Assembly (NCBI GenBank): GCA_963931435.1
Contig: OZ007012.1
Coordinates: 623,710 to 647,709 of the forward strand
DNA: 24,000 nt
Direction of reading: 5' to 3'
Origin: an uncultured Coriobacteriaceae bacterium
Lineage (GTDB): Bacteria; Actinomycetota; Coriobacteriia; Coriobacteriales; Coriobacteriaceae
The notes beneath the pieces are model-generated. The model saw nothing but the letters and a program-made list of their open reading frames with translations, was not told the origin of the DNA and searched no databases. Made by a program: the position numbers and the translations under genes. This document shows positions 662 to 19,493 of the stretch, one piece after another. Position 1 is the first letter of the stretch, and each line of letters opens with the position of its first letter.

Positions 662-710
662 ACGCTGATTTAAGCAGACAAGCCTCACGTCATACCAAGG
701 AGAACACCGT

Positions 711-1625: not shown

Positions 1626-1804
1626 GGCTTCTCGAGGGTTGCAGGTTTGCGCATCTCAAGAGGGGATGCGCAAACGAACTTGTATCGGGCACATAAGATG
1701 GAACCGCCCGGTACCGTGGTATCCGGTGTCATCGCACCCCGGAGTGAAAGCTCCGAATCCCTGCTTGCGGTGGCGAGCGGATAGAGATTGAAAGGGATAC
1801 GTAA

Positions 1805-2635
1805 ATGGCTGTAAAGCACCTTAAACCGACCAGCGCGGGCCGCCGCTGGCAGACGATCTCGGACTTCGCCGAGATCACCTGTACCACGCCCGAGAAGTCG
1901 CTCCTCGAGCCGCTTCCCAAGAAGGCCGGTCGCAACAACAACGGCCGCATCACCGTCCGCCATCAGGGCGGCGGCGTAAAGCGTCGCTATCGTCGCATCG
2001 ATTTCAAGCGCAACAAGGACGGCGTGCCCGCCAAGGTTGCCACCATCGAGTACGACCCCAACCGCTCCGCCCGCATCGCGCTGCTCCACTACGTGGACGG
2101 CGAGAAGCGCTACATCCTGGCGCCCAAGGGCCTCAAGGTGGGCGACATGGTTGAGTCCGGCGAGAACGCCGACATCAAGCCTGGCAACGCGCTGCCTCTC
2201 TCCGAGATCCCCGTGGGTACGCTCATCCACGCGATCGAGTTCCAGCCCGGCAAGGGCGCCGCTATCGCCCGCTCGGCCGGCTGCGCCTGCCAGCTCATGG
2301 GCAAGGAGGGCAAGTACGCCATCATCCGCATGCCGTCCTCCGAGATGCGCCGCGTGCTCATCACCTGCCGCGCCACGGTGGGCGAGGTGGGCAACGCCGA
2401 CCACGCCAACATCGTCATCGGCAAGGCCGGCCGCAAGCGCCACATGAACGTGCGCCCGACGGTGCGCGGTACCGTCATGAACCCGGTCGACCACCCGCAT
2501 GGCGGCGGCGAGGGCAAGAACCACACCTCTGGTCGCCCGTCTGTCACCCCGTGGGGCAAGCCGACGAAGGGCTATCGCACCCGCAAGAAGAAGAAGGCGT
2601 CGAATAGCCTCATCATCCGTCGTCGCAAGAAGTAG
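1805..2635 (+). CDS. rplB: 50S ribosomal protein L2
   Basis: 276-aa ORF with L2 motifs ([29 protein letters not shown], basic C-terminus). Confidence 0.98.
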
Positions 2636-2665
2636 TCGATACCGAGAATTAGGAGATAACGACTT

Positions 2666-2926
2666 ATGAGCAGAAGTCTCAAAAAGGGGCCGTTCGTTGA
2701 AGCTCGCCTGCTCTCGCGTATCATCGCGATGAACGAGGCCGGCAAGAAGGACGTTGTCAAGACCTGGTCCCGCGCTTCGACCATCTTCCCCGAGATGGTC
2801 GGTCACACGATCGCCGTGCACGACGGCCGCAAGCACGTCCCCGTGTACGTCACCGAGTCCATGGTTGGTCACAAGCTCGGTGAGTTCGCACCCACCCGTA
2901 CGTTCCGTGGCCACAAGGCCAAGTAG
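2666..2926 (+). CDS. rpsS: 30S ribosomal protein S19
   Basis: 86-aa ORF ([11 protein letters not shown]..., [30 protein letters not shown]). AGGAGA RBS upstream. Confidence 0.98.
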
Positions 2927-2940
2927 GGGGTTTCACGTAA

Positions 2941-3312
2941 ATGGCAACTAAAGCTACCGATACCGAGACCCGCGAGGTTCGCGCCGTCGCCAAGTACGTG
3001 CGCGTTTCCCCGTCCAAGGCTCGCCTCGTGGTCGATCTTATCCGCAACAAGTCCGTTGAGCAGGCGTTCGAGATCCTGCACTTCTGCGAGCGCGCCGTCG
3101 CCGTGGACGTGGAGAAGGTTCTCCGCTCTGCTGTGGCTAACGCCCAGCACAACAACGGCATGCGCGCCAGCGACCTCGTGGTCGTCAAGGCCTATGTCGA
3201 CGAGGGCCCGACCCTCAAGCGCATCCGTCCGCGTGCCAAGGGCTCCGCGTCGCGCATCCTGAAGCGCATGAGCCACATCACCGTCGTCGTCGCTCCTCGA
3301 AAGGAGGCATAA
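2941..3312 (+). CDS. rplV: 50S ribosomal protein L22
   Basis: 123-aa ORF, L22-like ([32 protein letters not shown]), in the conserved position. Confidence 0.97.
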
Positions 3313-3317
3313 GCGCT

Positions 3318-4456
<1,139 letters not shown>

Positions 4457-4672
4457 ATGAAGCCCGCAGAGATTCGTGAGCTCAACGACGCTCAGCTTGC
4501 TGATAAGCTGAAGGAGATGCGCGCCGAGCTCTTCAACCTCCGTTTCCAGATGGCCACCAGCCAGTTGGACAACACCGCTCGCGTCAAGCTCGTGAAGAAG
4601 GATATCGCCCGCATCCTTACGGAGCAGCGCGCCCGTGAAATCGCAGCGGAGAAGGCCGCTGCGGCGAACTAG
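4457..4672 (+). CDS. rpmC: 50S ribosomal protein L29
   Basis: 71-aa ORF directly after the rplP stop. L29-like ([27 protein letters not shown]). Confidence 0.96.
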
Positions 4673-4688
4673 ATCTCAAGGAGAGAAC

Positions 4689-4949
4689 ATGAGCGATACG
4701 CGTAACCAGCGTAAAGTCCGTACGGGCGTCGTCGTTTCGATCTCCGGCAACAAGACCATCGTGGTCCAGACCGAGGAGCGCAAGCGCCATCCCAAGTACG
4801 GCAAGATGATGACCACCACCAAGAAGCTGCACGCGCACGACGAGGAGTGCACTGCAGGCGTCGGCGACAAGGTTCGCGTCATGGAGACCCGTCCCCTGTC
4901 CAAGATGAAGCGTTGGCGTCTCGTCGAGATCATCGAGCGCGCCAAGTAA
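4689..4949 (+). CDS. rpsQ: 30S ribosomal protein S17
   Basis: The track ORF starts at 4635, but the ATG at 4689 follows an AAGGAGAG RBS (4677-4684). It gives the typical 86-aa S17 ([10 protein letters not shown]..., [22 protein letters not shown]). Confidence 0.93.
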
Positions 4950-5036
4950 GCTGCTTGTCCTGACTTCACGCTGACGACGTGCGACGCGCAAGGCAAGCTG
5001 CGCACCTCTCGCCAGCCTATGTTCGGAGGAACAACC

Positions 5037-5405
5037 ATGATTCAAATGCAAACCATGCTGAACGTCGCCGACAACTCCGGTGCGCGCAAGGTTCGCTGCA
5101 TCAAGGTGCTTGGTGGTTCCAAGCGCCGCTATGCGGGGATCGGCGACGTGATCGTGGCGGCCGTCCAGGAGGCCACTCCGGGCGCCAACGTCAAGAAGAA
5201 GGATGTCGTGAAGTGCGTCGTCGTGCGCACCGTCAAGGAGATCCGCCGCAAGGACGGCTCCTACATCCGCTTCGACGACAACGCCGCGGTCGTCATCAAC
5301 AACGACGGCTCGCCCGTGGGCACCCGCATCTTCGGGCCCGTGGCGCGCGAGCTGCGTGACAAGAAGTACATGAAGATCGTCTCGCTTGCTCCCGAGACCC
5401 TGTAG
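5037..5405 (+). CDS. rplN: 50S ribosomal protein L14
   Basis: ATG at 5037 after a GGAGGA RBS gives the canonical [16 protein letters not shown]... N-terminus, 122 aa. The track start at 5019 is probably too far upstream. Confidence 0.96.
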
Positions 5406-5424
5406 AAGAAAGGAGAGAGCAGCT

Positions 5425-5748
5425 ATGGCCATGTCCATCAAGAAGGGCGACACCGTCAAGATTCTCTCCGGCAAGGATCGCGGCAAGCAGGGCACCGTGC
5501 TCCGCGCCTACCCTGCTGAGGGCAAGATCAAGGTTGAGGGCGTTGCCGTGGTCACCAAGGCCGTGCGTCCCAACCAGCAGAACCAGGCCGGCGGCTTCGA
5601 GCACAAGGAGGCCAAGATCGACGCCTCCAACGCCATGCTCGTGTGCCCCAAGTGCGGCGCCGCCACCCGCGTGGGCCACAAGTCCGGCGAGCTCGACGGT
5701 CACAAGACCAAGATCCGCGTCTGCAAGAAGTGCGGTGCCGAGTTCTAA
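5425..5748 (+). CDS. rplX: 50S ribosomal protein L24 with a C-terminal CxxC...CxxC motif
   Basis: ATG at 5425 after an AGGAGAG RBS, 107 aa. KOW motif (KKGDTVKILSGKDRGKQGTV). The C-terminal part carries CPKC (C74/C77) and CKKC (C100/C103). Confidence 0.95.
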   Translation: MAMSIKKGDTVKILSGKDRGKQGTVLRAYPAEGKIKVEGVAVVTKAVRPNQQNQAGGFEHKEAKIDASNAMLVCPKCGAATRVGHKSGELDGHKTKIRVCKKCGAEF

Positions 5749-5793
5749 ATCCGCTATCGAGCTGATTCGATAGTTTCGCCTGAGGGCGCCTGA

Positions 5794-5823
5794 GCCCCGT
5801 CGCGCAAGCGGCGGGGCTTTTTT
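5794..5823 (+). terminator. Rho-independent terminator after rplX
   Basis: 10-bp GC stem GCCCCGTCGC/GCGGCGGGGC (one G-U pair), GCAA loop, then a T6 run at 5818-5823. A smaller hairpin CTATCGA/TCGATAG lies upstream at 5754-5773. Confidence 0.85.
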
Positions 5824-5880
5824 CCGCCGATTGAAGGGGGCGCGTTTCGAGGAGACGCATATCCTCTATGAAACTAAGTT

Positions 5881-6080
5881 GAGCCCGACCTGCCCAACTA
5901 AGTCCAACTGGGCCCAACCGGGCCCAACAGGTCCCAGGTGAGCCCAGCCGGCCAAACCGGGCCCAATCGAACCCAACGAGCCCGGCCGAGCCTAACCAAG
6001 CTCTACCAAGCTCTACCAAGCTCTACCAAGCTCTACCAAGCTCTACCAAGCTCTACCAAGCTCTACCAAGCTCTACCAAG
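5881..6080. repeat. 10-bp-periodic tandem array: about 12 degenerate units (NNCCCAANNN-like) then 8 perfect CTCTACCAAG units
   Basis: Read directly. 6001-6080 is exactly 8 x CTCTACCAAG, 5991-6000 is the variant CCTAACCAAG, and 5881-5990 repeats a CCCAA/CCCAG core every 10 bp. Confidence 0.9.
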
Positions 6081-6144
6081 CCAGATCTCCGCACTGCTCA
6101 CCTTCGTCGACCTCAGAACGAGCATGAATGTACAAAAAGCCGAG

Positions 6145-6180
6145 TAGGGAACAGTTTAGGGAACAGTCTAGGGAACAGTT
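6145..6180. repeat. 3 x 12-bp direct repeats (TAGGGAACAGTT / TAGGGAACAGTC / TAGGGAACAGTT), iteron-like
   Basis: Read directly. An 11-bp inverted copy of CGAGTAGGGAA (6141-6151) occurs at 6265-6275 (TTCCCTACTCG). The surrounding sequence is visibly AT-richer than the rest of the window. Confidence 0.85.
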
Positions 6181-7046
6181 CACAAAATGCCTGGTAGATG
6201 AGGTGCTGAATCTCGAAGGTAATGCCTCATCGGCGTATTTCAAGGGTTTTGGCGCACTAAACTATTCCCTACTCGACTTTCTGTACATAAGCGCAACGCC
6301 GTCGTGTGCAGGTATCGCTGTAGAGCAGTGCTGCCCCGGGCTTCTGAGCCGGGGCCACCGGCACACGGTCGGGCATCTCCCTTGCGGTTAAAACGTCGAA
6401 TGCCGCATAAAGGCGACCCCAGCACGTGTGCGGGCACCGCCATAGGTCTACCGCTTGTCCTTCGGTGGACGCTTTGGTTTCTGTCCACGCGCACCATCCC
6501 TGTGCACGCTCTGCACGCCGGCGCTGGGGCGGTAGCTTTGATGCAGCAGAAGGGTGCATGTCAGAACCATCGCTTAATAGATGGCTTTGTCAACACATCG
6601 TAGATCCTGCGCAGGGGTTGTCGCGATCTGGCCCGGCGTAGGTTGCTCCACCTTAACCCTGCCGCCCTGCAGTCAGCATCTCATTGTGCCTGCTGCCTGT
6701 CCGCTTGCCGCCCACCTGAACGCCGCCCTGCATGTCGGCCATGTTGCGCGCCCGACGTCTTCCTGCACGTCGCGAGCCCTGCTAAAAAGCGGCTGCGATC
6801 CGGCCTAACGCAGATGGTTCCGTTTGCGCCCCACCATCCCGTACACCATCTTTTCGCGTGTCCGCAGCCGCGCCTGCGTGCACGCTGCTGCACCTGCAAT
6901 GCAAGCCGGCGCACGGCCCGAGACCGTAACGCGCGCCCCCGAGCCGTCTTTTCACCGGAACGGTGCAATCTCAAGTGAAGACTTTGTGTGCGCGGTCGAG
7001 TATCCTCATGTAGGAGGAACCCGTCTGCAGAAAGGGGGATGGTTGC

Positions 7047-8954
7047 ATGAACGATCGCGCGCGCAAGCTCGTGATGCTGCTCGAGCAGAGCGGCACCTGG
7101 ACCACGGCCGCTTCGCTGGCCTCGTCGCTGGGATGCTCGGCGCGCACCGTCAAGACAACCGTCGCCCAGCTGAACGAGTCCCATCCCGGCATCGTCGTCT
7201 CGAGCTCCCATGGCTACCGCCTGGGCGATGCCGACGCGGTCGAAGACCTGCTCTCCTCGGCGACCACGCGCGTCGAGGGCGTGCCGCAGACGGCCCAGGA
7301 GCGCCGCACGCGCATCCTGTGCCAGCTGCTCATGCGCCACAACGAGCTCTCCGTCGAGGATCTTGCCCAGGAGCTGTGCATCTCGCTCACCACGCTGGAG
7401 AACGAGATTCAGGCCATCAACGCCGACCTCTCGGCGAGCGACGTGGCCCTGCGCACGCGCGGGGGCCAGCTGTTCGTGGCCGGTGACGAGGCCGCCAAGA
7501 AGCGCGTCATCAGCGACCTGCTCTTCGGCGAGACCCGGGACTTCTTCAACCAGCTCGAGCTGGTGAACGTCTACTTTCCCGATATCGACATCAAGGAGCT
7601 GCGCGCCGCGATCGACGAGCGGCTGAAGCGCGAGGGCTTCTTCATCAACGGCTACTCGCTCTCCAACCTGATTCTGCATATCGCGATCGCGCTGGAGCGC
7701 TGCCTCAACGGCTTTCCGGCGGCGGACAGCGGGTTTCCCGTCCAGGGCTCGATCTCCACGGAGGTCGACCGCGTCACCGAGGACATCCTGGGCGGCATCG
7801 AGGAGAAGTACCAGGTGTCCTTCTCGGCGGCGGATCGTCGCTCGCTCAAGCTCATCCTCTCCACCTGCCTAGTGGATGTCGACAGTCTGGAGGACGCGCG
7901 CCCGCAGAACAGCCAGGTCGCGCGCCTGCTCGACCATATCCGCGCCCGCGTGAGCAGCGAGTACGCGGTCGATCTCTCGGACGGGGAGTTTGGCGTGCGC
8001 TTCTCGCTCCACCTCGAGAACCTGCTCGCCCGCGGCGAGAGCGACGTGGTGCTGCGCAATCCGCAGTTCGACCTCATCAAGAACGCCTACCCCTATGTCT
8101 ACGAGATCGCGGTCTTCATCGCCGAAATCATCCAGAGCGATACCGGGCTCATGGTGAGCGAGGACGAGATCGCCTTCATCGCCCTCCACGTGGGCTGCTT
8201 CATCGAGGAGCAGGCGTCGCGCGGCAACAAGCTGCGGGCGTTCGTGGTGAGCCCGCGCTACAACGCGCGCAGCACCTCGCTCGCCGAGCTTTTGAGCGAC
8301 TACTTCGCGCAGGACCTCTGCATCGACGCGGTGGTGGAGGAGCCCGACGAGATCCGCAACGCCAGCCAGGTCGACATCATCATCTCGACGCAGGAGCTGC
8401 GCGGGCGGTTCGCCGCGCCCGTGGTCAAGGTCTCGCCGTTTCTGGGCGAGGTCGACCGCGCGCTCATCCGCACGCGCATCGACGCGATCCGCGCCGCCGC
8501 GCGTCGCCGCGCGATGGAGCGCAATCTCTACGCGTTCTTCCGCAGCGACCTGTTCTTCATCGACACGCCGTTCAAGGACGAGCACGACGTGATCGAGGCG
8601 ATGGGTGGCACCCTCGTGGAGCGCGAGTTCGCGTTCCCCGACTTCAAGGAGCGCCTCTACGCGCGCGAGGCGATCAGCTCGAGCGTGTACCGCGACATCG
8701 CTCTACCGCACCCCATCGACATGGATGGGATCAAGACGGCGGTGGCGGTCTCGCTCCACCCCGATCCCATCTCGTGGATGGGCTCGCCGGTGCATGCGGT
8801 GTTCATGCTGTGCGTCACGCGCGAGGACCGCTCGTTCTTCCGCGAGGTGTTCGAGTTCGTCGCCCACGTGCTCAACGAGCCCACGAGCGTGCAGACGGTG
8901 AGCCGCGCGCGCACGTTCGAGGAGTTCGTCGAGATGCTGCTGAGGTACTACTAG
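7047..8954 (+). CDS. PRD-domain transcriptional activator of the MtlR/LicR/ManR class (HTH - Mga-like HTH - PRD1 - PRD2 - EIIB(Gat)-like - EIIA(Mtl/Fru)-like)
   Basis: 635-aa ORF with a GGGGGA RBS before the ATG. N-terminal winged HTH. PRD-like segments with His (LILHIAIALER; FSLHLENLL; IAFIALHVG). EIIB-like segment KLRAFVVSPRYNARSTS. EIIA-like C-terminus with DIALPHP and AVFMLCV. Confidence 0.85.
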   Translation: MNDRARKLVMLLEQSGTWTTAASLASSLGCSARTVKTTVAQLNESHPGIVVSSSHGYRLGDADAVEDLLSSATTRVEGVPQTAQERRTRILCQLLMRHNELSVEDLAQELCISLTTLENEIQAINADLSASDVALRTRGGQLFVAGDEAAKKRVISDLLFGETRDFFNQLELVNVYFPDIDIKELRAAIDERLKREGFFINGYSLSNLILHIAIALERCLNGFPAADSGFPVQGSISTEVDRVTEDILGGIEEKYQVSFSAADRRSLKLILSTCLVDVDSLEDARPQNSQVARLLDHIRARVSSEYAVDLSDGEFGVRFSLHLENLLARGESDVVLRNPQFDLIKNAYPYVYEIAVFIAEIIQSDTGLMVSEDEIAFIALHVGCFIEEQASRGNKLRAFVVSPRYNARSTSLAELLSDYFAQDLCIDAVVEEPDEIRNASQVDIIISTQELRGRFAAPVVKVSPFLGEVDRALIRTRIDAIRAAARRRAMERNLYAFFRSDLFFIDTPFKDEHDVIEAMGGTLVEREFAFPDFKERLYAREAISSSVYRDIALPHPIDMDGIKTAVAVSLHPDPISWMGSPVHAVFMLCVTREDRSFFREVFEFVAHVLNEPTSVQTVSRARTFEEFVEMLLRYY

Positions 8955-8995
8955 CCCCGCGGCAAAGCCGCTGGTGCGAAGGGAAGGGATGGAAG

Positions 8996-10039
8996 ATGGC
9001 CGATCTAGAGTTGTTGAAGCGTCTGAGCAACGCCGACGCCGTCGCAGGGCGCGAGCGCGAGGTGCGCGCGATCCTCGAGGCGGAGCTCGCCGACTCGTGC
9101 GACCGCATCGAGCACGACGGCCTGGGCAGCGCCCTGTTCGTGAGCGAGGGCGCCGAGGAGAACCCCGTGCGCATCATGTTCGCCGCGCACATGGACGAGG
9201 TCGGCTTCATGGTGCGCCACATCTCCGATCTGGGCATGCTGCATCTCACCGTGCTGGGCGGAGTGCTCGACAAGAGCAAGCACATGCAGGCCGTGCGCGT
9301 CACCTGCGCCGACGGCACCAAGGTGCCCGGCGTCCTCAACGCCAAGACGGGCGCGGACGGACACGTCGAGGAGGCCTACGTCGACCTGGGCTGCGAGAGC
9401 CGCGCCGACGTCGAGGCGCTCGGCGTCGCCGTGGGCGACATGGTGACCTTCGCCAGCGAGGCGCATGAGCTGGCCCTCGACAAGGTCGCCGGCAAGGCCA
9501 TGGACGACCGCTCCGGCCTCTACGTCATCGCCGAGGCGCTGCGCCGCCTCCACGCCGAGGGCCATGCGGCCGAGGTGTGGATGGCCGCGACCTCCAGCGA
9601 AGAGGTGGGCACGCGCGGCGGCAAGACCGCGTGCGCCTACGCCGATCCCGATATCTTCGTCGCGGTGGACGTCGCCTCCGGCGCCGACCTGTCCCGCGAT
9701 TTCACCAACCACCGCAAGCTGGGCCAGGGCTGCATGATCGAGCACTACGACAAGACCATGGTCCCGCATGAGGGGCTGCTCCGCATCGCGCGCGACCGCG
9801 CCCGCGAGGAGGGCATCGCGGTCCAGCTCGACATGCTGGGCGGCGGCGGCACCGATGCCGGCACCGCGCACCTGGTGGGGGCGGGACGCGCCGCGCTCGT
9901 CATCGGCATCCCGCTGCGCGGGTGTCACGGCGCCTGGTCGGTGGCCAGCGCCGCCGACATCTCATCCGCAATCGATCTGGTGTGCGCTATCGCCAGGTCG
10001 TTTGATAGGAACACCTACCAGTCCGTCATCGAGTTCTAA
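8996..10039 (+). CDS. M42 family metallo-aminopeptidase (FrvX/YpdE/CelM-like; often mis-annotated as endoglucanase)
   Basis: The in-frame ATG at 8996 (MADLELLKRLS...) lies after the regulator stop, 347 aa. M42 metal-site motifs are present: HMDEVGFMV, GKAMDDRSG, SSEEVGTRG, GGGGTDAG. Confidence 0.88.
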   Translation: MADLELLKRLSNADAVAGREREVRAILEAELADSCDRIEHDGLGSALFVSEGAEENPVRIMFAAHMDEVGFMVRHISDLGMLHLTVLGGVLDKSKHMQAVRVTCADGTKVPGVLNAKTGADGHVEEAYVDLGCESRADVEALGVAVGDMVTFASEAHELALDKVAGKAMDDRSGLYVIAEALRRLHAEGHAAEVWMAATSSEEVGTRGGKTACAYADPDIFVAVDVASGADLSRDFTNHRKLGQGCMIEHYDKTMVPHEGLLRIARDRAREEGIAVQLDMLGGGGTDAGTAHLVGAGRAALVIGIPLRGCHGAWSVASAADISSAIDLVCAIARSFDRNTYQSVIEF

Positions 10040-10054
10040 GGGAAGGGGGGAAAG

Positions 10055-10378
10055 ATGGCAGGAACGTACGAGCAGGTGATCATGGGCATCATCTCGTCTG
10101 CGGGCGAGAGCAAGGCGCGCGCCTTCGATGCGCTCAAGAAGGTCAAGGAGGGCGACTACGACGGCGCCCGCGCGGCGCTCAAGGAGTCGCGCGACCTCGA
10201 TCTCGAGGCGCACGAGGAGCAGACCAAGCTCATCACCGCGGAGCTCGCCGGCGGCGACGACCGTCCCGAGATGAGCCTCCTCATGGTGCACGCCCAGGAT
10301 CACTACATGTGCGCCGCTCTGGCGCGCGACCTGATCGAGGCGATCACTGAGGTTTTCGAGTCCAAGGAGGCAAAGTAA
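10055..10378 (+). CDS. PTS lactose/cellobiose-family EIIA component
   Basis: 107-aa ORF. Helical EIIA(Lac/Cel) pattern with the conserved LLMVHAQDH histidine region. Confidence 0.9.
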   Translation: MAGTYEQVIMGIISSAGESKARAFDALKKVKEGDYDGARAALKESRDLDLEAHEEQTKLITAELAGGDDRPEMSLLMVHAQDHYMCAALARDLIEAITEVFESKEAK

Positions 10379-10717
10379 ATGAAGATCGTTCTGTGCTGCC
10401 AGGGTGGTTTCTCCACCACCATGCTCATGGATAGCATGAAGCGCACCGTCAAGGAGAGCAAGAAGCTCAACGAGGCTGACTTCACTTTCAAGGCGATCCC
10501 TGCGGACCAGTTGCCGATGGAGGTCGAGGACACCGACGTGGTCATCCTCGGGCCCCAGGTCGCGCACCGCGTCGACTCCATCCGCGAGGTCATCGATCCG
10601 TACAAGATCCCCTACACGGTGGTCGACAAGGACACCTACGGCAAGATGGACGGCGCCACGGTGCTCAAGATGGCCCTCGTCGCCCGCAAGAAGGCCGATC
10701 TCGCCCAGGGCAAGTAG
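10379..10717 (+). CDS. PTS lactose/cellobiose-family EIIB component
   Basis: 112-aa ORF starting directly after the EIIA stop. N-terminal MKIVLCCQGGFSTTML matches the active-site Cys loop of EIIB(Cel). Confidence 0.9.
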   Translation: MKIVLCCQGGFSTTMLMDSMKRTVKESKKLNEADFTFKAIPADQLPMEVEDTDVVILGPQVAHRVDSIREVIDPYKIPYTVVDKDTYGKMDGATVLKMALVARKKADLAQGK

Positions 10718-10809
10718 GCCTCACGTGAGCACCCCGCAGACGCACCTCGGTTTCCACGCGCGGGCGCGTCTGCAAGGCACCATCTCGATTCTAGAAAGGT
10801 GTGACCCCC

Positions 10810-12168
10810 ATGGGAGCACTTGAGAATTTCCTCAATAAATACCTCGGCCCCATCGCGGAGTGGATGGACAAGAACCGCTATCTGAGCGCGATCAAGAAGT
10901 CCATGGTCGCCATGACCCCGCTGCTCATCATCGGTTCGTTCTGCCTCATCCCCGACGCGATCCCCAACTACATCGGCGTGGACAACCCGGTGTCGCAGTG
11001 GATCATGGCCAACAGCTCGCTGATCACCATGCCCAACACCGTCGGCATGGGCCTGATGGCGCTCTACGTCACCGTGATCATCGCCTATCACCTGTCGCAG
11101 CACTACAAGCTCGACGTGCCCGGCGCGACCAGCATGGCGCTCATCGCCTTCCTGCTGCTCGCCGTGGCCTTCGATGAGGAGGGTGGCTGGGACGTCACCT
11201 ATCTGGGCACCAAGGGCCTGTTCGTGTCCATGGTCGCCGCGATCCTCGCCGTCGAGATCTACCGCTGGTTCAAGAACAAGAACATCACCATCAAGCTGCC
11301 CGAGTCCGTGCCGGACTTCGTGTCGAACTCCTTCGCCATGATCCCGCTCGCGGTGGGCACCGTTCTGGTGTTCCTCATCATCCGCATCGTGTGCGTGAAC
11401 GTCTTCGGCATCATGCCACCGCTGATCTTCACCAACCTGCTGGCACCGCTCGTGGGTTCCATGGACAACCCGCTCGCCGTGACCTTCCTGCAGATCCTGC
11501 GCTGCCTGCTGTTCTTCTTCGGCATCCACCCCTCGGTGCTGTCGCCGATCACCAGCCCGATCTCCACGCAGTTCCTGGCTGAGAACATCGCGGCCGTCCA
11601 GGCCGGCGGCGTGGCCACGCACTTCTTCGCCCCCGGCCCCGAGTCCGCGTTCGGCAACTTCACCGGTACCGGCGTGACCTTCGGCCTGGTGTTCTGGAGC
11701 ATGCTGTCCAAGTCCGACGCGCAGAGGAAGATCGGCCGCCTGGCCCTCATCCCGGCACTGTTCGGCATCAACGAGCCCATCCTGTTCGGCGCCCCCATCG
11801 TGCTGAACCCGATCTACTTCATCCCCTACGTCATCTTCGGCGGCCTCATGGGCGTCATCCCGTACTGGATGATGTACTTCGGCATCCTGGATTGCTCCAC
11901 CTTCACGCCTCCCTACGTCGGCGTGTTCCTGGAGGGCTTCCTCACCAACTTCGACTACATGTCGATCGTGGCGAACGCCATCCAGCTGATCTGCTCCATC
12001 ATCGTGTGGTTCCCGTTCTTCAAGATCTACGAGAGGCGCGAGCTGGAGAAGGAGGCCCAGATCGAGGCCGAGAAGGCTGCCGGCATCGCCGTCGATTCCG
12101 AGGGCGGCTCGGTGACCATCTCCGAGGAGGACATGAAGCTCCTCGACGACATGGATCTCGACTTCTAG
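10810..12168 (+). CDS. PTS lactose/cellobiose-family EIIC permease
   Basis: Multi-pass membrane ORF closely resembling ChbC/CelB/LicC (ITIKLPESVPDFVSNSF, FFFGIHPS, GINEPILFGAPIVLNPIYFIPYV). The ATG at 10810 is preferred over the GTG at 10801 because of GAAAGG RBS spacing. Confidence 0.92.
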   Translation: MGALENFLNKYLGPIAEWMDKNRYLSAIKKSMVAMTPLLIIGSFCLIPDAIPNYIGVDNPVSQWIMANSSLITMPNTVGMGLMALYVTVIIAYHLSQHYKLDVPGATSMALIAFLLLAVAFDEEGGWDVTYLGTKGLFVSMVAAILAVEIYRWFKNKNITIKLPESVPDFVSNSFAMIPLAVGTVLVFLIIRIVCVNVFGIMPPLIFTNLLAPLVGSMDNPLAVTFLQILRCLLFFFGIHPSVLSPITSPISTQFLAENIAAVQAGGVATHFFAPGPESAFGNFTGTGVTFGLVFWSMLSKSDAQRKIGRLALIPALFGINEPILFGAPIVLNPIYFIPYVIFGGLMGVIPYWMMYFGILDCSTFTPPYVGVFLEGFLTNFDYMSIVANAIQLICSIIVWFPFFKIYERRELEKEAQIEAEKAAGIAVDSEGGSVTISEEDMKLLDDMDLDF

Positions 12169-12276
12169 CAGACCCCTTTGGAGATGCCCCGGCTGCCTGG
12201 CGGCCGGGGCGTCGCGAAGACGTCGGCGCCCCGGGGAGATGGCAGATGCGCTCCCTGGGGCGCTGTTGAGAGTGAG

Positions 12277-13377
12277 ATGAGTCCCATGGCGGATCTAAAC
12301 CATATCGAGCGGGTGCGTGCGCAACTCGCTGCCAGCGATTGCGACGCCGTGCTCATCAAGAGCAAGACGATGAAGAAGTACCTGGGCACCCTCACAGGGA
12401 GCGGCTGCAAGGTGCTCATCACCCGCGAGCGGGCCTACATGATCCTCGACGGCCGCTACGTCAACGAGGCGCATGAGCGCGAGCACACCCTGGAGCTCGT
12501 GGAGCACGCCCAGGGCGAGAGCTACCTGCCCTATGTGAAGCGCCTGCTCGAGGCCGAGGGCGCCCGCCGCCTGGGCGTCGAGGCCGATCAGATGCTCGTG
12601 GGGGAGTACCGCAAGGTCGAGGCGCTCGGCTTCGAGGTGGTGCTGCTGGACGATGAGATCCCTCTCATGCGCATCATCAAGGACGCGGACGAGGTGGCAC
12701 ATCTGCAGCGCGCCATCGACCTCACCGACGAGATCTACGAGGAGGTCATCTCGCGCCTGCGCGTGGGCATGACCGAGTACGAGATCAGCGCGCTTCTGCA
12801 CTACCACTCCTATCTGAGGGGCGCCGAGGCCATGAGCTTCGACACCATCGTGGGCACAGGCCCGCGCAGCGCCCTGCCGCATGGCCGGCCGACCGGGCGC
12901 GTGGTCGAGCCGCACGACGCGGTGCTCATCGATTTCGGCATCCAGTTCGAGGGCTACCAGTCCGATATGACCCGCGTGGTCTTCATGGGTGAGCCGACCC
13001 CGGAGATGCGGCGCATCTACGAGGTGGTGCTCGAGGCCCATCTGGCTGGCATCGACGCCATGCGCGTCGGCGCGGTGGCCGAGGACGTCGACCGCGCCGC
13101 CCGCGACGTGATCGAGCGCGCCGGCTACGGCGAGAACTTCAACCACGGCCTGGGCCACGGTATCGGGATCGGCAACGACAACGAGCTGCCGCTCCTGCGC
13201 CCCGGCAGCAAGACGGTGCTCGACAACGGCATGATCATGTCCTGCGAGCCCGGCGTGTACGTGGCGGGCGTGGGCGGCGTGCGGATCGAGGACGACGTCC
13301 TCATCGACGGCGGCGTGGGACGGCCCCTCAACCACACGCCCAAGGAGTTTCGCATCATCCCCATCAAGGAGGCGTAA
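12277..13377 (+). CDS. M24B family metallopeptidase (Xaa-Pro aminopeptidase/dipeptidase, YpdF/PepQ/PepP-like)
   Basis: Pita-bread fold motifs and a complete metal-ligand set (DFGIQFEGYQSDMTRV, GHGIGI, EPGVY, GGVRIEDDV). Start is uncertain: ATG 12277 or 12286. The track start at 12178 is unlikely. Confidence 0.88.
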   Translation: MSPMADLNHIERVRAQLAASDCDAVLIKSKTMKKYLGTLTGSGCKVLITRERAYMILDGRYVNEAHEREHTLELVEHAQGESYLPYVKRLLEAEGARRLGVEADQMLVGEYRKVEALGFEVVLLDDEIPLMRIIKDADEVAHLQRAIDLTDEIYEEVISRLRVGMTEYEISALLHYHSYLRGAEAMSFDTIVGTGPRSALPHGRPTGRVVEPHDAVLIDFGIQFEGYQSDMTRVVFMGEPTPEMRRIYEVVLEAHLAGIDAMRVGAVAEDVDRAARDVIERAGYGENFNHGLGHGIGIGNDNELPLLRPGSKTVLDNGMIMSCEPGVYVAGVGGVRIEDDVLIDGGVGRPLNHTPKEFRIIPIKEA

Positions 13378-14568
13378 ATGAGCTACGACTTCGACGCGGT
13401 CCACGACCGCCTGGGTACCTACTGCACGCAGTGGGATTACATCCAGGATCGCTTCGGCGAGGCGGGGCTGCTGCCGTTCTCCATCTCCGACCACGACTTC
13501 CGCGTGCCCGACCCCATCGTCGCGGCGCTGCACAAGGTGGTCGACCACGGCATCTACGGCTACACCCGCTGGAACCACCACGAGTTCAAGGGCGCCATCA
13601 CAGGCTTCTTCGCCCGCCGCTTCGGCGTCGAGATGCCCGAGGACTGGGTGCTCTACAGCCAGAGCGTCATGTACACGCTCGCCAAGCTCATGTGCTTCTT
13701 CACCGAGCCGGGCGACGGCGTCGTCTCGTTCGCGCCCATGTACGACTCGTTCATCAAGATCTGCGTGGGCAACGGCCGCAGGCTCATCTCCAACAAGCTC
13801 GTCAACGTCGACGGCCACTACGAGATCGACTTCGAGCAGCTCGATCATGATCTGGCCGATGCGCGCGTGATGCTTCTGTGCTCGCCCCACAACCCCAGCG
13901 GCCGCGTCTGGACGCGCGAGGAGCTCTCCCGCATCGTGGCGATGTGCCGCGAGCACCGCGTGAAGATCATCTCCGACGAGATCCACATGGACCTCGAGAT
14001 GGCTGATGAGCGCCGCCAGATCCCGGCGCTGGCGTTCTATGACGAGTACCCGGAGATCTACATCGCCTCCGCCTGCTCCAAAACCCTCAACACCCCGGGC
14101 CTCATGGGTTCTTACGCCATCGTCCCCGATCCGGACGTGCGCGAGGAGTTCCTCTACCAGACCCGCAACCGCGACCTGCTCAACTCGGCCAGCATCCCGG
14201 GCCTTTACGCTACCATGGTGGGCTACACCGAGTGCGATGACTACATCGACGAGTTGAGGGCGTATCTGCGCGGCAACCACGAGCTCGTCAAGAGCTTCAT
14301 CGACGCCAACCTGCCCGACCTGCGCTTCGAGGTGCCCGAGGCCACGTGCCTCTCCTGGATCGACGCGCGCCAGGTGCCCTTCACCTCGGCTGAGATCCAG
14401 GACGCGCTCGTGCACGTGGGCCGCGTCGGCATCATGCCCGGAGAGACCTACGGCGAGGGTGGCCTGGGCTACCTGCGCATGTGCATCGGCGGCCCGCGCT
14501 CCAAGGTCGAGGAGGGCCTGAAGCGCATGAAGTTGGCATTCGACGCCCTCTACGAGCGCGCCGACTGA
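13378..14568 (+). CDS. malY: PLP-dependent C-S lyase / aminotransferase class I-II (MalY/PatB family cystathionine beta-lyase-like)
   Basis: 396-aa ORF colinear with E. coli MalY as I recall it (FD...V.DR.GT.CTQWDY..DRFG...LLPF.ISD.DF; LLCSP.NP.G.VWT..EL; ISDEIHMD; PLP-lysine context SACSKTLN; MPG.TYGE.G.G..R...G.PRSK). Confidence 0.88.
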   Translation: MSYDFDAVHDRLGTYCTQWDYIQDRFGEAGLLPFSISDHDFRVPDPIVAALHKVVDHGIYGYTRWNHHEFKGAITGFFARRFGVEMPEDWVLYSQSVMYTLAKLMCFFTEPGDGVVSFAPMYDSFIKICVGNGRRLISNKLVNVDGHYEIDFEQLDHDLADARVMLLCSPHNPSGRVWTREELSRIVAMCREHRVKIISDEIHMDLEMADERRQIPALAFYDEYPEIYIASACSKTLNTPGLMGSYAIVPDPDVREEFLYQTRNRDLLNSASIPGLYATMVGYTECDDYIDELRAYLRGNHELVKSFIDANLPDLRFEVPEATCLSWIDARQVPFTSAEIQDALVHVGRVGIMPGETYGEGGLGYLRMCIGGPRSKVEEGLKRMKLAFDALYERAD

Positions 14569-14602
14569 GAACGCAACCCTTGAGACGTCAGGATCGTGAG
14601 CG

Positions 14603-15274
14603 ATGAGCAAGAAGCATAAGAAGCGCAACCGCCGTCCCGCTGGCGGCGCATCCGGCGCGAGCGCGCAGCCCGCGTCCCATACCGAGGAGGAGAAGCTGCC
14701 CGTGCGGTCGGTGGCGGTGACCACGCAGGTGTCCGTCCTGCGGCGCTTCGGCGCTTACGCCATCGATTGGGCGGTCGGCGGCGTTGTGACGGGGGCACCC
14801 GCGGTGCTGCTCTACAGCGCCGTCACGCGCCGCACCGATTTCTACTCCGACCTGTACGTGTTCGAGGCGCTCGGCTACCCCATGTGGTGGGGCGTGCTCG
14901 CCGGGGTGCTCTGTATCCTGGCCGGCCTCTTCTACTACGTATGGGTGCCCGCCCGCATGATGCCGGGCCAGACCCTGGGCAAGCGCCTGCTGGGCCTGGA
15001 GGTCCGCTCCATGGATGGCTCGCTGCCCTCCCTGGGGGCGCTCGCCGTGCGCTACGGCCTCATCGGCTTCCTGCTCGAGGGCAACGCCTTCGTCACGGGG
15101 CGCTTCATCCGCGAGCTCGCGACGCTCATCATCCGCATCGACGTGGCCACGCCGTGGTCCATCGCGTGCGTCGGCATCACGATCGTCTCGGCGTTCCTGG
15201 CGCTCTACCGCCCGCAGCATCGGGCGCTGCATGATTTCGCCGCGGGCACCCGCGTGGTCGCCCGCATATCCTGA
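14603..15274 (+). CDS. RDD family membrane protein
   Basis: 223-aa ORF. Basic N-terminus, RRFGAYAIDW (R..D) plus a later PGQTLGKRLLGL segment, about 3 hydrophobic helices, C-terminal ALHDFAAGTRVV typical of RDD proteins. Confidence 0.75.
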   Translation: MSKKHKKRNRRPAGGASGASAQPASHTEEEKLPVRSVAVTTQVSVLRRFGAYAIDWAVGGVVTGAPAVLLYSAVTRRTDFYSDLYVFEALGYPMWWGVLAGVLCILAGLFYYVWVPARMMPGQTLGKRLLGLEVRSMDGSLPSLGALAVRYGLIGFLLEGNAFVTGRFIRELATLIIRIDVATPWSIACVGITIVSAFLALYRPQHRALHDFAAGTRVVARIS

Positions 15275-15321
15275 CAACCACGACGGGGGCCGTGCGGCCC
15301 CGCCAACCGGAAGGACAGCCA

Positions 15322-15594
15322 ATGTATTCCAAGACCACCACCATCGTGAACGCTTCGGGCCTGCACGCCCGTCCCGCCGCCGTCTTCGCCAAGCAGGCGG
15401 GCTCCTACGAGTCCAAGGTGACCATCCGCAACATCACCAAGGAGAGCTCCGCGCTCGACGCCTCCTCGATGCTCTCGATCATGATGCTCGCCGCCAAGCA
15501 GGGCAACGAGGTGGAGATTGCCGCCGAGGGCGCCGATGAGCAGAAGGCCGTCGACGAGCTCGTGCAGCTCCTGGAGGACGGCTGCGGCGAGTAG
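15322..15594 (+). CDS. ptsH: Phosphocarrier protein HPr
   Basis: ATG at 15322 after a GGAAGGA RBS, 90 aa. Active-site SGLHARPA (His15 equivalent) and a Ser in the Ser46-equivalent region (DASSMLSIMML). Confidence 0.93.
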   Translation: MYSKTTTIVNASGLHARPAAVFAKQAGSYESKVTIRNITKESSALDASSMLSIMMLAAKQGNEVEIAAEGADEQKAVDELVQLLEDGCGE

Positions 15595-15801
15595 CCGCAG
15601 GCATCTTTTCCTTCTGCCGCGTTAACGCCATCAAGGGCTCCGGGGGTTTCCGGGGGCGACAATCCGTAGCCGCGAAGCGGCGAGGACGTCGCCTGCGAAA
15701 ATCCCCGGAGCCCCTTTCAGCTTGGCGTTCGCGCACCCCTTGTGCGATGATGGCCTTGTGCGGTGCCAGCGGGGTGCCGCGCCCTGCGAAAAGGGGGTAC
15801 C

Positions 15802-17255: not shown

Positions 17256-18699
17256 ATATGGGATAAAGGGCGCGAACGGGGCGGAGGGCGCGCGCTCCTC
17301 CTTGGGGTACGGCCCCTGTCGAGAGAATCGCGCCTCCGGCCCGCGGGTGGACGCGGATTAGGCAGAATGGCGTTCGGCGCCGGATCTCCCAGGAGGTTGC
17401 GCCCGCGGATTCCGAAGGAAAACCTTCGTCCCGCCGAGAGGACGGAGGGGAAAGATGCTCTACATCGGGATCGACGTCGCGAAGAGGTCGCACGTGGCGG
17501 CCGCGATGGGCGACGGCGGGGAGGTCGCCGTCGAGCCGTTCGAGTTCAGAAACACGCAGAAGGGGTTCGAGCGTCTGCTCGAGCGCCTTGCCAGACGGGG
17601 CGTCTCTGCCGAGGGGTCGCTGGTCGGCATGGAGGCCACGGGGCACTACTGGGTGGCGCTCTTCGACTTCCTCGCCGCCAACGGCTTCGAGGTCGCCGTC
17701 ATCAACCCCATCCAGACCGACGCGTGGCGCAGGGTCGACACCGTGCGGCCGGCGAAGACCGACGGCATCGACGCCCTGCTCATCGCGGACCTCCTGCGTT
17801 GCAAGCGCTTCGAACCCTCGGCGCTCGGGGACGAGGCGACCGAGGAGCTCAGGCAGCTCGCCCGGTACCGCTTCGAGCTCGTGCAGGAGCTCACCGCCCT
17901 CAAGAACCGGGCGACGGCGATTCTCGACCGGGTGTTCCCGGAGTACGAGCGGCTCTTCGCGGACAAGTTCGGCCCGACGTCGTCGGCGCTGCTCAAGGAG
18001 TGCGCCACGCCCGCCGACGTGCTGGCGGCGGACCCCGAGGCGCTCGCCGGGCTGCTCGCCGAGGCCAGCCGCGGCAGGCTCGGGCGCGAGAGGGCCGACG
18101 AGGTCGTCGAGGCCGCCCGCTCCTCGGTCGGCGTGTCCTTCGGCTCCCGGGCGCTCGCCTTCGAGCTCAGGGTGCTCGTCGAGCGCATGGAGTTCACCCG
18201 CGGGCAGATCTCGGAGCTGGAGGCGGAGATTGCCCGCGCGCTGTCCGAGACCGCCGGCAGGCACCTGACGAGCATACCGGGCGTCGGGCCCGCGCTCGCG
18301 GCGCTCATCGCCGGCGAGGTCGGCGACGCCGCGCGCTTCGAGACGCCCTCCAAGCTCGTCGCGTACGCGGGCATGGACGCGACCAGGCGCGTCTCGGGAG
18401 AGAGCCTCGACAGCCCCGGGCACCTCTCCAAGCGCGGCTCGTCGTACCTCAGGTGGGCGCTCATGCAGGGCGCCGACCGGGCAAGGAGGTTCGACCCGTA
18501 CTTCGGGGAGTGCTACGCGCGCAAGATCTCGCAGGGCAAGCACCACTACGTGGCCCTCACGACGGTCGCCCGCAAGCTCGCCGCCGTCTGCCTCGCCCTC
18601 ATGAAGGAGGACAGGGACTGGTCGCCCGACCCGCCGGCCGGGCATCTCCCCGGTCACCTCTCGCAGAAGAGGTGACCGTTCGCGCCCTTTATCCCATAT
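17256..18699 (+). mobile_element. IS110-family insertion sequence (minimum extent, bounded by 24-bp perfect inverted repeats; true termini not determinable here)
   Basis: ATATGGGATAAAGGGCGCGAACGG at 17256-17279 is the exact reverse complement of 18676-18699. The repeats enclose a single DEDD/Tnp_20 transposase gene. Confidence 0.8.
17455..18675 (+). CDS. IS110 family transposase/recombinase (DEDD RuvC-like N-domain plus Transposase_20 C-domain)
   Basis: 406-aa ORF. N-terminus LYIGIDVAKRSH and GMEATGHYW. C-terminal IPGVGPALAALIAGEVGDAARF...AYAGMDATRRVSGES...LSKRGSSYLRWAL. GGAGGGGAAAG RBS upstream. Confidence 0.93.
   Translation: MLYIGIDVAKRSHVAAAMGDGGEVAVEPFEFRNTQKGFERLLERLARRGVSAEGSLVGMEATGHYWVALFDFLAANGFEVAVINPIQTDAWRRVDTVRPAKTDGIDALLIADLLRCKRFEPSALGDEATEELRQLARYRFELVQELTALKNRATAILDRVFPEYERLFADKFGPTSSALLKECATPADVLAADPEALAGLLAEASRGRLGRERADEVVEAARSSVGVSFGSRALAFELRVLVERMEFTRGQISELEAEIARALSETAGRHLTSIPGVGPALAALIAGEVGDAARFETPSKLVAYAGMDATRRVSGESLDSPGHLSKRGSSYLRWALMQGADRARRFDPYFGECYARKISQGKHHYVALTTVARKLAAVCLALMKEDRDWSPDPPAGHLPGHLSQKR

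Positions 18700-19118: not shown

Positions 19119-19493
<375 letters not shown>

Follow-up and report, generated by a model that had tools for sequence, protein, structure and literature searches.

A widespread PTS cassette of the lactose/cellobiose family joins two metallopeptidases and a MalY/PatB-type lyase and carries no phospho-glycosidase gene

We analysed a 24,000-nucleotide stretch of DNA from an uncultured Coriobacteriaceae bacterium (GenBank assembly GCA_963931435.1, contig OZ007012.1, positions 623,710–647,709; referred to below as the window) and found that a gene cassette within it is kept almost unchanged in at least 70 species of gut, oral and food bacteria. The cassette combines a transporter of the phosphotransferase system (PTS) with two metallopeptidases of families M42 and M24B and a pyridoxal 5'-phosphate (PLP)-dependent lyase of the MalY/PatB type, hereafter PatB. 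The textbook PTS operon consists of a transporter and a phospho-glycosidase. The cassette described here is an uncharacterised and widespread variant of the PTS catabolic operon and is not categorically new. It has been seen before in L. sakei yet left unexplained. Our tentative explanation, to which we give a little less than an even chance, is that a single conserved operon, spread by horizontal transfer, serves the breakdown of a glycosyl-amino acid or short glycopeptide, and that PatB replaces the phospho-glycosidase in it.

Results

A compact cassette without a linked phospho-glycosidase

The open reading frames (ORFs) of the window were chosen by coding-type G+C content at third codon positions (GC3), and all such ORFs were annotated with Pfam and NCBIfam. 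An earlier note on this DNA, made from the sequence alone, had listed a PRD activator, an M42 aminopeptidase, EIIA, EIIB, EIIC, an M24B peptidase, a MalY/PatB lyase, an RDD membrane protein and HPr. Our scans recovered all nine families, encoded by nine genes on the + strand between positions 7047 and 15594 (Table 1). From the regulator to HPr, the intergenic gaps are 41, 15, 0, 92, 117, 0, 34 and 47 nt, which confirms the tight packing described in that note; judged from this packing, the nine genes are likely to be co-transcribed. The refined starts of the M42, EIIC and M24B genes match independent gene calls on identical metagenome contigs. The window, DNA of a Collinsella-like member of the Coriobacteriia, has a GC content of ~65%, and the codon usage of the cassette (GC3 0.9) matches that of its host.

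The earlier note had also claimed that a phospho-glycosidase is missing, and our analysis agrees. No glycoside hydrolase was found among the annotated ORFs of coding-type GC3 in the whole 24 kb. A linked 6-phospho-β-glycosidase of family GH1 or GH4, the feature expected of a canonical cellobiose, chitobiose or lactose PTS operon, was detected neither in the window nor inside the cassettes of the 79 related loci introduced below.

The gene order is conserved across two phyla

A scan based on the EIIC alignment, with one genome per species, returned 79 EIIC-orthologous loci. The window proteins were compared with these loci by tblastn and counted if they lay within 7 kb of EIIC (Table 1). The loci belong to Coriobacteriia, Erysipelotrichales, Clostridia and Lactobacillales, and the genera carrying them include Collinsella, Olsenella, Lancefieldella/Atopobium, Olegusella, Clostridium, Peptacetobacter, Terrisporobacter, Enterococcus, Granulicatella, Lactococcus and Bavariicoccus, together with members of the Lactobacillaceae. 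Strand and gene order are shared by nearly all matches, with gaps under ~100 nt, and most absences fall at contig ends. M42, M24B and PatB are kept in order in 73–74 of the 79 species-level loci, an association far beyond chance, and the cassette is no chance neighbourhood.

The order regulator-M42-IIA-IIB-IIC-M24B-aminotransferase-RDD is shared by Collinsella stercoris (which also has HPr), Longicatena and Dubosiella muris, in wholly different flanks. Between Actinomycetota and Bacillota, identity is 55–75% for EIIC, EIIA and EIIB, ~45–60% for the enzymes and ~20% for the regulator. Taken with the host-like codon usage, these values suggest that the cassette spread horizontally long ago and then adapted locally. 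When the ORFs in the flanks were clustered, none of those inside the cassettes of the 79 loci proved to be a GH1 or GH4 gene; a GH1 gene lies within 9 kb in six loci, ~5.7 kb off and on mixed strands. By the same clustering, no sugar-phosphate catabolic gene is linked to the cassette.

The transporter belongs to an uncharacterised EIIC clade

Translation of EIIC was assigned to start at ATG 10810 (ORF start GTG 10801); the exact protein occurs on 19 contigs and is 85% identical to EIIC of Collinsella stercoris. It scores above the cut-offs of the family models TIGR00410 (266.8 versus 236) and PF02378 (150.8 versus 30.7), and remains under those of the substrate-specific equivalogs TIGR00359 (266.8 versus 434), TIGR00394 (197.7 versus 614) and NF007634 (109 versus 760). 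Based on these scores, the transporter is classified as a member of the PTS lactose/cellobiose (Lac/Cel) family (TC 4.A.3), in an uncharacterised EIIC clade. The protein matches the structure of ChbC (PDB 3QNQ) at 1.5e-42, and the histidine of the GIHP motif (H240) and the glutamate of the NEP motif (E322) are aligned; these two residues are at least 97% conserved in the orthologues as well. EIIA (PF02255 at 1.7e-26) carries its phosphorylation site H79 within the motif HAQDH and EIIB carries C7; both sites are at least 97% conserved among ~73 orthologues. HPr scores 94.7 bits against TIGR01003 (cut-off 47.9) with the active histidine inside GLHARPA. Of all the cassettes, those of Collinsella and Olsenella alone include its gene, and we predict that it serves as a phosphocarrier dedicated to the cassette in Coriobacteriia. 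The RDD protein, which directly follows EIIC in Lactobacillaceae, may be an accessory or export component.

EIIC ends in an acidic tail with the consensus S-x-E-D-x-x-L-L-D-D-L-D-L-D-F-COOH, which in the window reads …LLDDMDLDF (12100–12168 region). The tail is kept in 70 of 72 cassette EIICs of both phyla (loci L013–L090), including the 47%-identity Companilactobacillus clade; neither the reduced variant L088 nor L091, an outgroup linked to GH1, has it. In its form it recalls short docking motifs such as the C-terminal tail of the single-stranded DNA-binding protein SSB, and it might dock a soluble enzyme or the regulator onto the transporter.

Both peptidases retain intact active sites

The M42 gene was assigned a start at ATG 8996 (ORF start GTG 8774), and its product matches PF05343 at 1.7e-71 (241 bits). 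The best PDB match is 1YLO, the Shigella orthologue of YpdE, at 4.6e-65, and the protein is 39% identical to E. coli YpdE. Its score against the YpdE equivalog model NF007421 is 394.9 bits and lies below the cut-off of 412, so that by these scores the protein is YpdE-like and formally no YpdE equivalog. The metal-binding and catalytic residues H65, D67, D170, E202, E203, D225 and H311 are intact.

The likely start of M24B is ATG 12286, rather than TTG 12178. The protein scores 229 bits against NF007310, matches PDB 3Q6D at 9e-73 and YpdF (5CNX) at 6e-59, and is 37% identical to YpdF. With both the Creatinase_N and the pita-bread domains detected, it is assigned to the Xaa-Pro peptidase family. 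Its ligands D216, D227, H291, E321 and E335 are also intact, and the active-site residues of both peptidases are at least 97% conserved in the ~73 orthologues. No signal peptide was apparent on inspection of the N-termini of M42, M24B and PatB, so the three enzymes would act in the cytosol on imported material.

PatB is a conserved protein of the MalY/PatB type

PatB scores 335.5 bits against TIGR04350, for which the cut-off is 340. Its closest structures in the PDB are E. coli MalY (1D2F, 4e-88), to which it is 38% identical, and then B. subtilis PatB (6QP3, 3e-77). The PLP lysine K235 aligns with K233 of MalY. This residue, together with the stacking tyrosine Y122, N172, D200 and the α-carboxylate-binding arginine R367, is at least 97% conserved in 73 orthologues. 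The statement in the earlier note that the catalytic motifs of the peptidases and the PLP lysine are intact is thereby upheld, both by alignment to solved structures and by conservation. Structure alignments and the ~73 orthologues revealed no cassette-specific phosphate-binding residues in PatB, the conserved basic residues all being family-wide.

A β C-S lyase function is predicted for the window protein, and the activity is known from its L. sakei orthologue. The MalY encoded in the cassette of strain LT-13 was purified and described as a PLP enzyme with β-lyase activity on L-cysteine, cystine and cystathionine and with weak, broad racemase activity, the best measured activity being the desulfhydration of L-cysteine (PMC5845896).

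E. coli MalY, the closest solved structure, carries an annotation as negative regulator of MalT, and the earlier note had offered as an alternative that the MalY-like protein is a regulator. It would then act mainly through protein–protein contacts, as MalY does on MalT, on the PRD activator or another target, and its lyase activity would be vestigial. We regard this explanation as highly improbable. It is weakened by the conservation of the PLP lysine, stacking tyrosine and carboxylate-binding arginine, by the linkage of RidA and alanine dehydrogenase genes to PatB (see below), and by the activity of the orthologue from L. sakei LT-13, the genome of which has no MalT homologue (PMC5845896).

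Variant loci and accessory genes point to a catalytic role of PatB

In loci where M24B is missing (L017, L071 and L088), PatB directly follows EIIC, much as malY follows malX in E. coli, and PatB is the enzyme most tightly coupled to the transporter. A reduced arrangement of this kind is that of Coprobacillus (L088; features listed at 6954–8249 (-), 8387–9940 and 12411–14201 of that locus), with the string lactate permease, EIIC, PatB and M3 oligopeptidase F. There, the L-lactate permease gene lies directly upstream of EIIC, and a single neighbouring ORF fuses HPr to a D-2-hydroxyacid dehydrogenase. Downstream PatB is missing in a sub-clade of Collinsella tanakaei, Olsenella uli and a Coriobacteriaceae metagenome-assembled genome (L019, L024, L027 and L045), in which the interval between regulator and M42 holds the gene of a class I/II aminotransferase that is longer (541 aa in L027), ~30% identical and read in the opposite direction.

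In 11 loci (L040, L042, L044, L053, L072, L074, L080, L082, L085, L087 and L090), the lyase gene is directly followed by a co-directional RidA/YjgF gene (Ribonuc_L-PSP), ~3.6 kb downstream of the EIIC start. In Lactococcus (L043), an alanine dehydrogenase gene is inserted between M24B and PatB (12454–13575 of that locus), and genes for enzymes of the lactate dehydrogenase (LDH) or D-2-hydroxyacid dehydrogenase type lie near the cassette in ~16 loci; the window has one at 21026–22009 (Table 1). RidA quenches the 2-aminoacrylate released by PLP-dependent β-eliminases, and alanine dehydrogenase and LDH act on pyruvate. Together with the lactate permease, these accessories argue that PatB is catalytic here and that pyruvate and ammonia are among its products.

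The same accessories fit equally well a different substrate, namely an amide-linked cysteine–aminosugar such as Cys-GlcN-X (GlcN, glucosamine), resembling bacillithiol or deacetylated mycothiol, or another N-aminoacyl-glucosamine. In that scheme the PTS would phosphorylate the GlcN moiety, one or both peptidases would act as amidases on the bond between sugar and aminoacyl group, whose amine is free, and PatB would desulfhydrate the released cysteine to pyruvate, H2S and ammonia. GlcN-6-phosphate would pass to a housekeeping NagB, so that a glycosidase would be unnecessary, in agreement with the absence of linked sugar-catabolic genes. The measured preference of the L. sakei enzyme for cysteine desulfhydration speaks for this alternative, as does the presence of non-peptide amidohydrolases in the creatinase/prolidase fold, with the ectoine hydrolase DoeA among the weaker NCBIfam matches. 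Nevertheless, we judge it distinctly unlikely. To our knowledge, Coriobacteriia, Erysipelotrichales, Clostridia and Lactobacillales make neither bacillithiol nor mycothiol, and the environmental supply of such thiols would be small. Two aminopeptidases appear excessive for a single amide bond, a glycosidase would still be required to take off the aglycone (malate or inositol), and no NagA or NagB gene is linked to the cassette.

Directly downstream of the cassettes in L078, L080, L082, L085 and L090 are genes for a GntR/UTRA regulator, a mannose-family PTS (IIB, IIC, IID and IIA), a 681-aa protein with no Pfam match and a SIS-domain protein. This operon resembles Amadori or amino-sugar operons. 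Glucoselysine and fructoselysine systems likewise use a PTS. Both observations could be taken to favour a glycated (Amadori or Heyns) peptide as the substrate, for example one containing ε-fructosyl- or lactulosyl-lysine from heated food or host proteins. The aminopeptidases would free the glycated amino acid, an unlinked SIS-type deglycase would complete the breakdown, and PatB would be ancillary. We consider such a substrate very unlikely. It would leave RidA and PatB, the most conserved enzyme, without a role. No locus has a deglycase gene within the cassette. Mannose-family PTS and SIS genes adjoin it in few loci (about five), mostly of Lactobacillaceae, and the adjacent operon has its own regulator.

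Regulation and transcription of the cassette

The regulator contains HTH_11, Mga HTH, PRD and C-terminal EIIA2 domains; Pfam detected neither another PRD nor an EIIB-like domain. The N-terminus shows a weak match to the FrvR model NF007366. From its domains, the protein is assigned as a PRD-containing activator of the LicR/MtlR/ManR architecture. With this type of architecture, expression depends on how strongly the PTS is engaged by its cognate substrate.

The ~1.3 kb between rplX and the regulator gene is lower in GC and is the presumed promoter/operator region. Two ORFs within it (6128–6391 and 6643–6978) have no Pfam match, and a simple sigma-70 consensus scan upstream of the regulator identified no promoter. 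The window contains no Rfam match to known RNA elements. Tandem Repeats Finder (TRF) located tandem arrays in the same region (Table 1), among them a perfect 10-bp repeat, ACCAAGCTCT, in 8.7 copies and a 12-bp repeat, TAGGGAACAGTT, in 3 copies. Gene calls on related contigs (L004/L006) differ across the arrays, which suggests variation in repeat number.

No terminator-like site with a T-run was found on the + strand inside the cluster. Such a site, a hairpin followed by a T-run, does overlap the stop codon of HPr and is probably the 3' end of the transcription unit. The two GC-rich hairpins in the EIIC–M24B spacer have a minimum free energy (MFE) of -72.1 kcal/mol (z = -4.6; 0 of 200 shuffled sequences equally stable). 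Of 60 loci, 48 have a comparable hairpin directly 3' of the EIIC stop, in spacers that are often only 39–50 nt long; the Firmicutes version often reads AAGGCAAGC-N4-GCTTGCCTT followed by U residues. This element is probably a leaky terminator or mRNA stabiliser that divides the operon into a PTS half and an enzyme half and adjusts their relative transcript levels. Since many of the EIIC–M24B spacers are too short for a promoter, we do not take the hairpin as evidence of independent transcription. A hairpin in the EIIB–EIIC spacer was discarded because it is no more stable than shuffled sequences (z = -0.3).

The post-EIIC hairpin also bears on the most conventional explanation, a PTS for an ordinary β-glucoside or disaccharide served by a glycosidase from another part of the genome, with the peptidases and the lyase as co-regulated scavengers coupling carbon, nitrogen and sulfur supply. 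A conserved terminator-like element between EIIC and M24B–PatB would suit such a division of labour, as would a bona fide Lac/Cel EIIC with the sugar-site histidine and glutamate intact, the six loci with a GH1 gene nearby and the generic in vitro activities of YpdE, YpdF and MalY. What makes this explanation unlikely in our view is that more than 70 species from two phyla retain the gene order although the genomic surroundings change; without a substrate in common, this would be difficult to account for. The enzymes moreover bracket the transporter (M42 upstream, M24B and PatB downstream), spacers of 39–50 nt are too small for a separate promoter, a glycoside hydrolase gene is never found inside the cassette, and PatB stays beside EIIC even in the reduced variants.

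Neighbouring genes

The window opens with ribosomal protein genes (rplC…rplX) that end directly before the cassette region, and no rplE, rpsN or rpsH was found further down the window. The wholly different context of the cassette in Collinsella stercoris indicates that the cassette has been relocated. The L24 protein encoded by rplX has weak zinc-ribbon Pfam matches near residues 84–96 and 110–120 and ends in …CKKCGAEF, features that suggest a zinc-binding variant. Downstream of HPr come genes for a xanthine/uracil permease, an IS110 transposase and a protein with an RF-1 domain, then a second ORF of transposase type and a gene for a D-2-hydroxyacid dehydrogenase (Table 1). The transposases just downstream fit a rearrangement-prone region.

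Among the 79 loci, an ATP-binding cassette (ABC) transporter ATPase is encoded within 9 kb (at ~-6 kb) in 11 (L014, L027, L028, L030, L035, L055, L063, L066, L073, L078 and L083) that belong to several phyla, which by eye we take to be BceA-like, and an OmpR-type response regulator lies within 9 kb of the cassette in six. This proximity may be due to chance or to a link with antimicrobial peptides.

Table 1. Features of the 24 kb window and occurrence of the cassette genes among the 79 EIIC-orthologous loci.
Feature	Position	Strand	Basis	Loci (of 79)
Ribosomal protein genes rplC…rplX	41–5748
rplX (L24)	5386–5748		weak zinc-ribbon Pfam matches
Non-coding stretch, rplX to regulator	5749–7046	+	no coding-type GC3 ORF
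Tandem arrays	5892–5966; 5995–6081; 6145–6180		TRF
PRD/Mga/EIIA2 activator (predicted)	7047–8954	+	PF08279, PF05043, PF00874, PF00359	58 (at cassette head)
M42 aminopeptidase, YpdE-like, 347 aa	8996–10039	+	PF05343, NF007421	73
EIIA-Lac	10055–10378	+	PF02255	72
EIIB-Lac	10379–10717	+	PF02302	73
EIIC-Lac	10810–12168	+	TIGR00410, PF02378
Two GC-rich hairpins, EIIC–M24B spacer	12171–12264	+	MFE versus shuffles
M24B Xaa-Pro peptidase, YpdF-like	12286–13377	+	PF00557, PF01321, NF007310	73
MalY/PatB β-lyase (C-S lyase family)	13378–14568	+	TIGR04350, PDB matches	74
RDD small membrane protein	14603–15274	+	PF06271 at 6.5e-18	51
HPr, likely extent	15322–15594	+	PF00381, TIGR01003	5
Terminator-like hairpin with T-run	15582–15600	+	hairpin scan
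IS110-family transposase	17455–18675
RF-1-domain protein, 124 aa, ArfB-like	19119–19493
Second transposase-like ORF	19717–20883		zinc-ribbon and weak Mutator/MULE matches
D-2-hydroxyacid dehydrogenase (LDH-type or D-2-hydroxyacid dehydrogenase group)	21026–22009

Discussion

A proposed pathway

The earlier note had advanced the working hypothesis that the PTS imports and phosphorylates a sugar conjugate which the peptidases and the C-S lyase then dismantle. Our results strengthen this hypothesis through the glycosidase-free cassette in two phyla, the coupling of PatB to EIIC and the RidA, alanine dehydrogenase and LDH accessories, and do not prove it. That the cassette encodes a single pathway for some sugar–amino-acid or sugar–peptide conjugate is plausible, and we hold this part with more confidence than the explanation as a whole. 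Our confidence is lower for the specific proposal that PatB takes the place of the glycosidase.

In the pathway that we propose, EIIC with EIIA and EIIB, and with HPr in Coriobacteriia, would import the compound and phosphorylate its sugar, and the flux of substrate through the PTS would activate the PRD activator and switch the operon on. M42 and M24B, the latter at X-Pro bonds, would trim the N-terminus of the imported peptide to leave a free β-substituted amino acid bearing the phosphosugar. PatB would then carry out β-elimination, yielding 2-aminoacrylate and either a 1-thio-sugar-6-phosphate from an S-linked cysteine or a sugar-6-phosphate from an O-linked serine, and 2-aminoacrylate would break down to pyruvate and ammonia. 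Of this scheme, we infer the substrate class, the cut by PatB at the sugar–amino-acid link and the identity of the sugar. The pathway would explain the missing phospho-glycosidase, the coupling of EIIC and PatB, the RidA, alanine dehydrogenase and LDH accessories and the lack of linked sugar-phosphate genes. The last of these hints that the sugar is perhaps glucose or another one handled by housekeeping enzymes. S-glycosides, for their part, resist O-glycosidases.

Several points weigh against this pathway. We know of no abundant natural source of S-glycosyl-cysteine. Glycocins are natural S- and O-β-glycosylated peptides whose action is linked to the PTS, but they are rare and too large to pass EIIC intact, so that fragments at best could serve as substrates. 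The PatB family is known mainly for C-S cleavage, and the O-linked version would need an activity unseen in the family. A 1-thio-sugar-6-phosphate has no obvious metabolic fate, and aminopeptidases alone cannot clear the residues C-terminal to the modified amino acid. A glycosidase or another member of the regulon could sit elsewhere in the genome, beyond the 24 kb window, and the stable hairpin that follows EIIC in most loci could partly uncouple the expression of M24B and PatB from that of the PTS genes. Finally, L-serine is no β-elimination substrate of L. sakei MalY, and the activities of this enzyme are low (nmol/min/mg) and accompanied by racemase side activities (PMC5845896).

Two further substrates were considered. 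Muropeptide recycling, with a GlcNAc-MurNAc-peptide (N-acetylglucosamine and N-acetylmuramic acid) as the substrate, MalY as a racemase and links to alanine dehydrogenase and D-LDH, was rejected as the leading explanation because it needs an amidase, an etherase and a glycosidase, none of which is ever linked to the cassette. The N-glycan core compound GlcNAc-Asn was set aside, since it requires a glycosylasparaginase for its cleavage, rather than a β-lyase.

Implications

Many bacteria of the human gut and mouth (Collinsella, Olsenella, Lancefieldella, Erysipelotrichaceae and Clostridium) and food lactobacilli carry the cassette, and the nutrient class that it implies, sugar–amino-acid and sugar–peptide conjugates, is ignored by current metabolic models. 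If PatB frees H2S or thiols from dietary or host conjugates, this would have a bearing on gut sulfur metabolism. A broader version of our proposal holds that PLP-dependent β-elimination is a general glycosidase-free way of releasing PTS-phosphorylated sugars from glycosylated cysteine or serine, with M42 and M24B enzymes trimming the glycopeptides. We consider this generalisation doubtful. If true, it would constitute a new catabolic logic for glyco-amino acids and would give a physiological role to E. coli MalX-MalY, FryABC-YpdEF, FrvX and SgcX.

The cassette offers a tractable handle on the old puzzle of PTS-linked MalY, YpdE/F, FrvX and SgcX. Compact and PRD-controlled, it should respond to its own substrate, and a promoter-reporter fusion could serve as a biosensor. 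The L. sakei strains LT-13, which has the cluster, and LK-145, which does not, form a natural test pair.

Comparison with known systems

In L. sakei LT-13, the cassette corresponds to the cluster LACBS_00568–00576, an 8 kb region that strain LK-145 lacks (Kato & Oikawa 2018, PMC5845896). This cluster likewise encodes PRD protein(s), an aminopeptidase, Lac-type IIA, IIB and IIC, RDD, an aminopeptidase and MalY (PMC5845896). It differs from the window cassette in that RDD directly follows EIIC, HPr is absent and the regulator is split into two ORFs. Kato and Oikawa placed the cluster within D-amino-acid metabolism and left its physiological role open, and they analysed neither its conservation nor the missing glycosidase (PMC5845896). 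Literature searches on ypdE/ypdF, M42 with PTS, frvX/sgcX, RDD with PTS and MalY, and glycopeptides or glyco-amino acids with PTS found no functional study of the cassette beyond this paper; in a thioproline paper YpdF features only as a phylogenetic outgroup, and a paper on C. difficile MalY has no connection to the cassette.

Chemical precedent for the proposed PatB step comes from LmbF of lincomycin biosynthesis, a PLP enzyme of fold type I that β-eliminates S-glycosyl-L-cysteine to a thio-sugar (PMC11794154). LmbF is biosynthetic rather than catabolic and has no PTS context, it is not known to belong to the PatB/MalY subfamily, and it is not among the PDB matches of the window PatB at E ≤ 1e-20.

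With the canonical Lac/Cel operons (E. coli chbBCARFG, B. subtilis licBCAH and lacFEG), the cassette shares separate EIIA, EIIB and EIIC proteins of TC 4.A.3, with their respective His, Cys and His/Glu sites, and a PTS-responsive regulator (a PRD activator of LicR type). Whereas those operons carry a GH1 or GH4 6-phospho-β-glycosidase, the cassette instead has two metallopeptidases, a PLP β-lyase and RDD. The thioalcohol pathway of Staphylococcus hominis reportedly follows a similar sequence of steps, with import of a cysteine conjugate, trimming of the peptide by a dipeptidase and C-S cleavage by a lyase of the PatB family. That pathway is said to use a peptide transporter in place of a PTS, to involve no sugar or phosphorylation and to have no conserved operon of this architecture.

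The earlier note had drawn parallels to E. coli, and these stand for two operons. In fryB-fryC-ypdF-ypdE-fryA, the M42 peptidase YpdE and the M24B peptidase YpdF are embedded as a pair in an orphan PTS operon. FryC, however, belongs to an unrelated EIIC family; PatB, RDD and the PRD activator are absent, and the peptidase genes are adjacent instead of bracketing the transporter. In malX-malY, a PTS permease gene is followed 10 nt on by a gene for a MalY-type β-C-S lyase; in contrast to the cassette, MalX is an EIICB of the Glc family, peptidase genes are missing, and MalY is best known as a MalT antagonist. The further parallels to PTS-linked M42 genes, frvX and sgcX, we take from general knowledge and the names of models. 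The occurrence of a YpdE/YpdF-like pair beside an unrelated EIIC in E. coli indicates that the link is between PTS and peptidases and not with one sugar family. PTS permeases from no fewer than three PTS families are associated with such enzymes, and this recurrence argues most strongly for a link that is functional and general.

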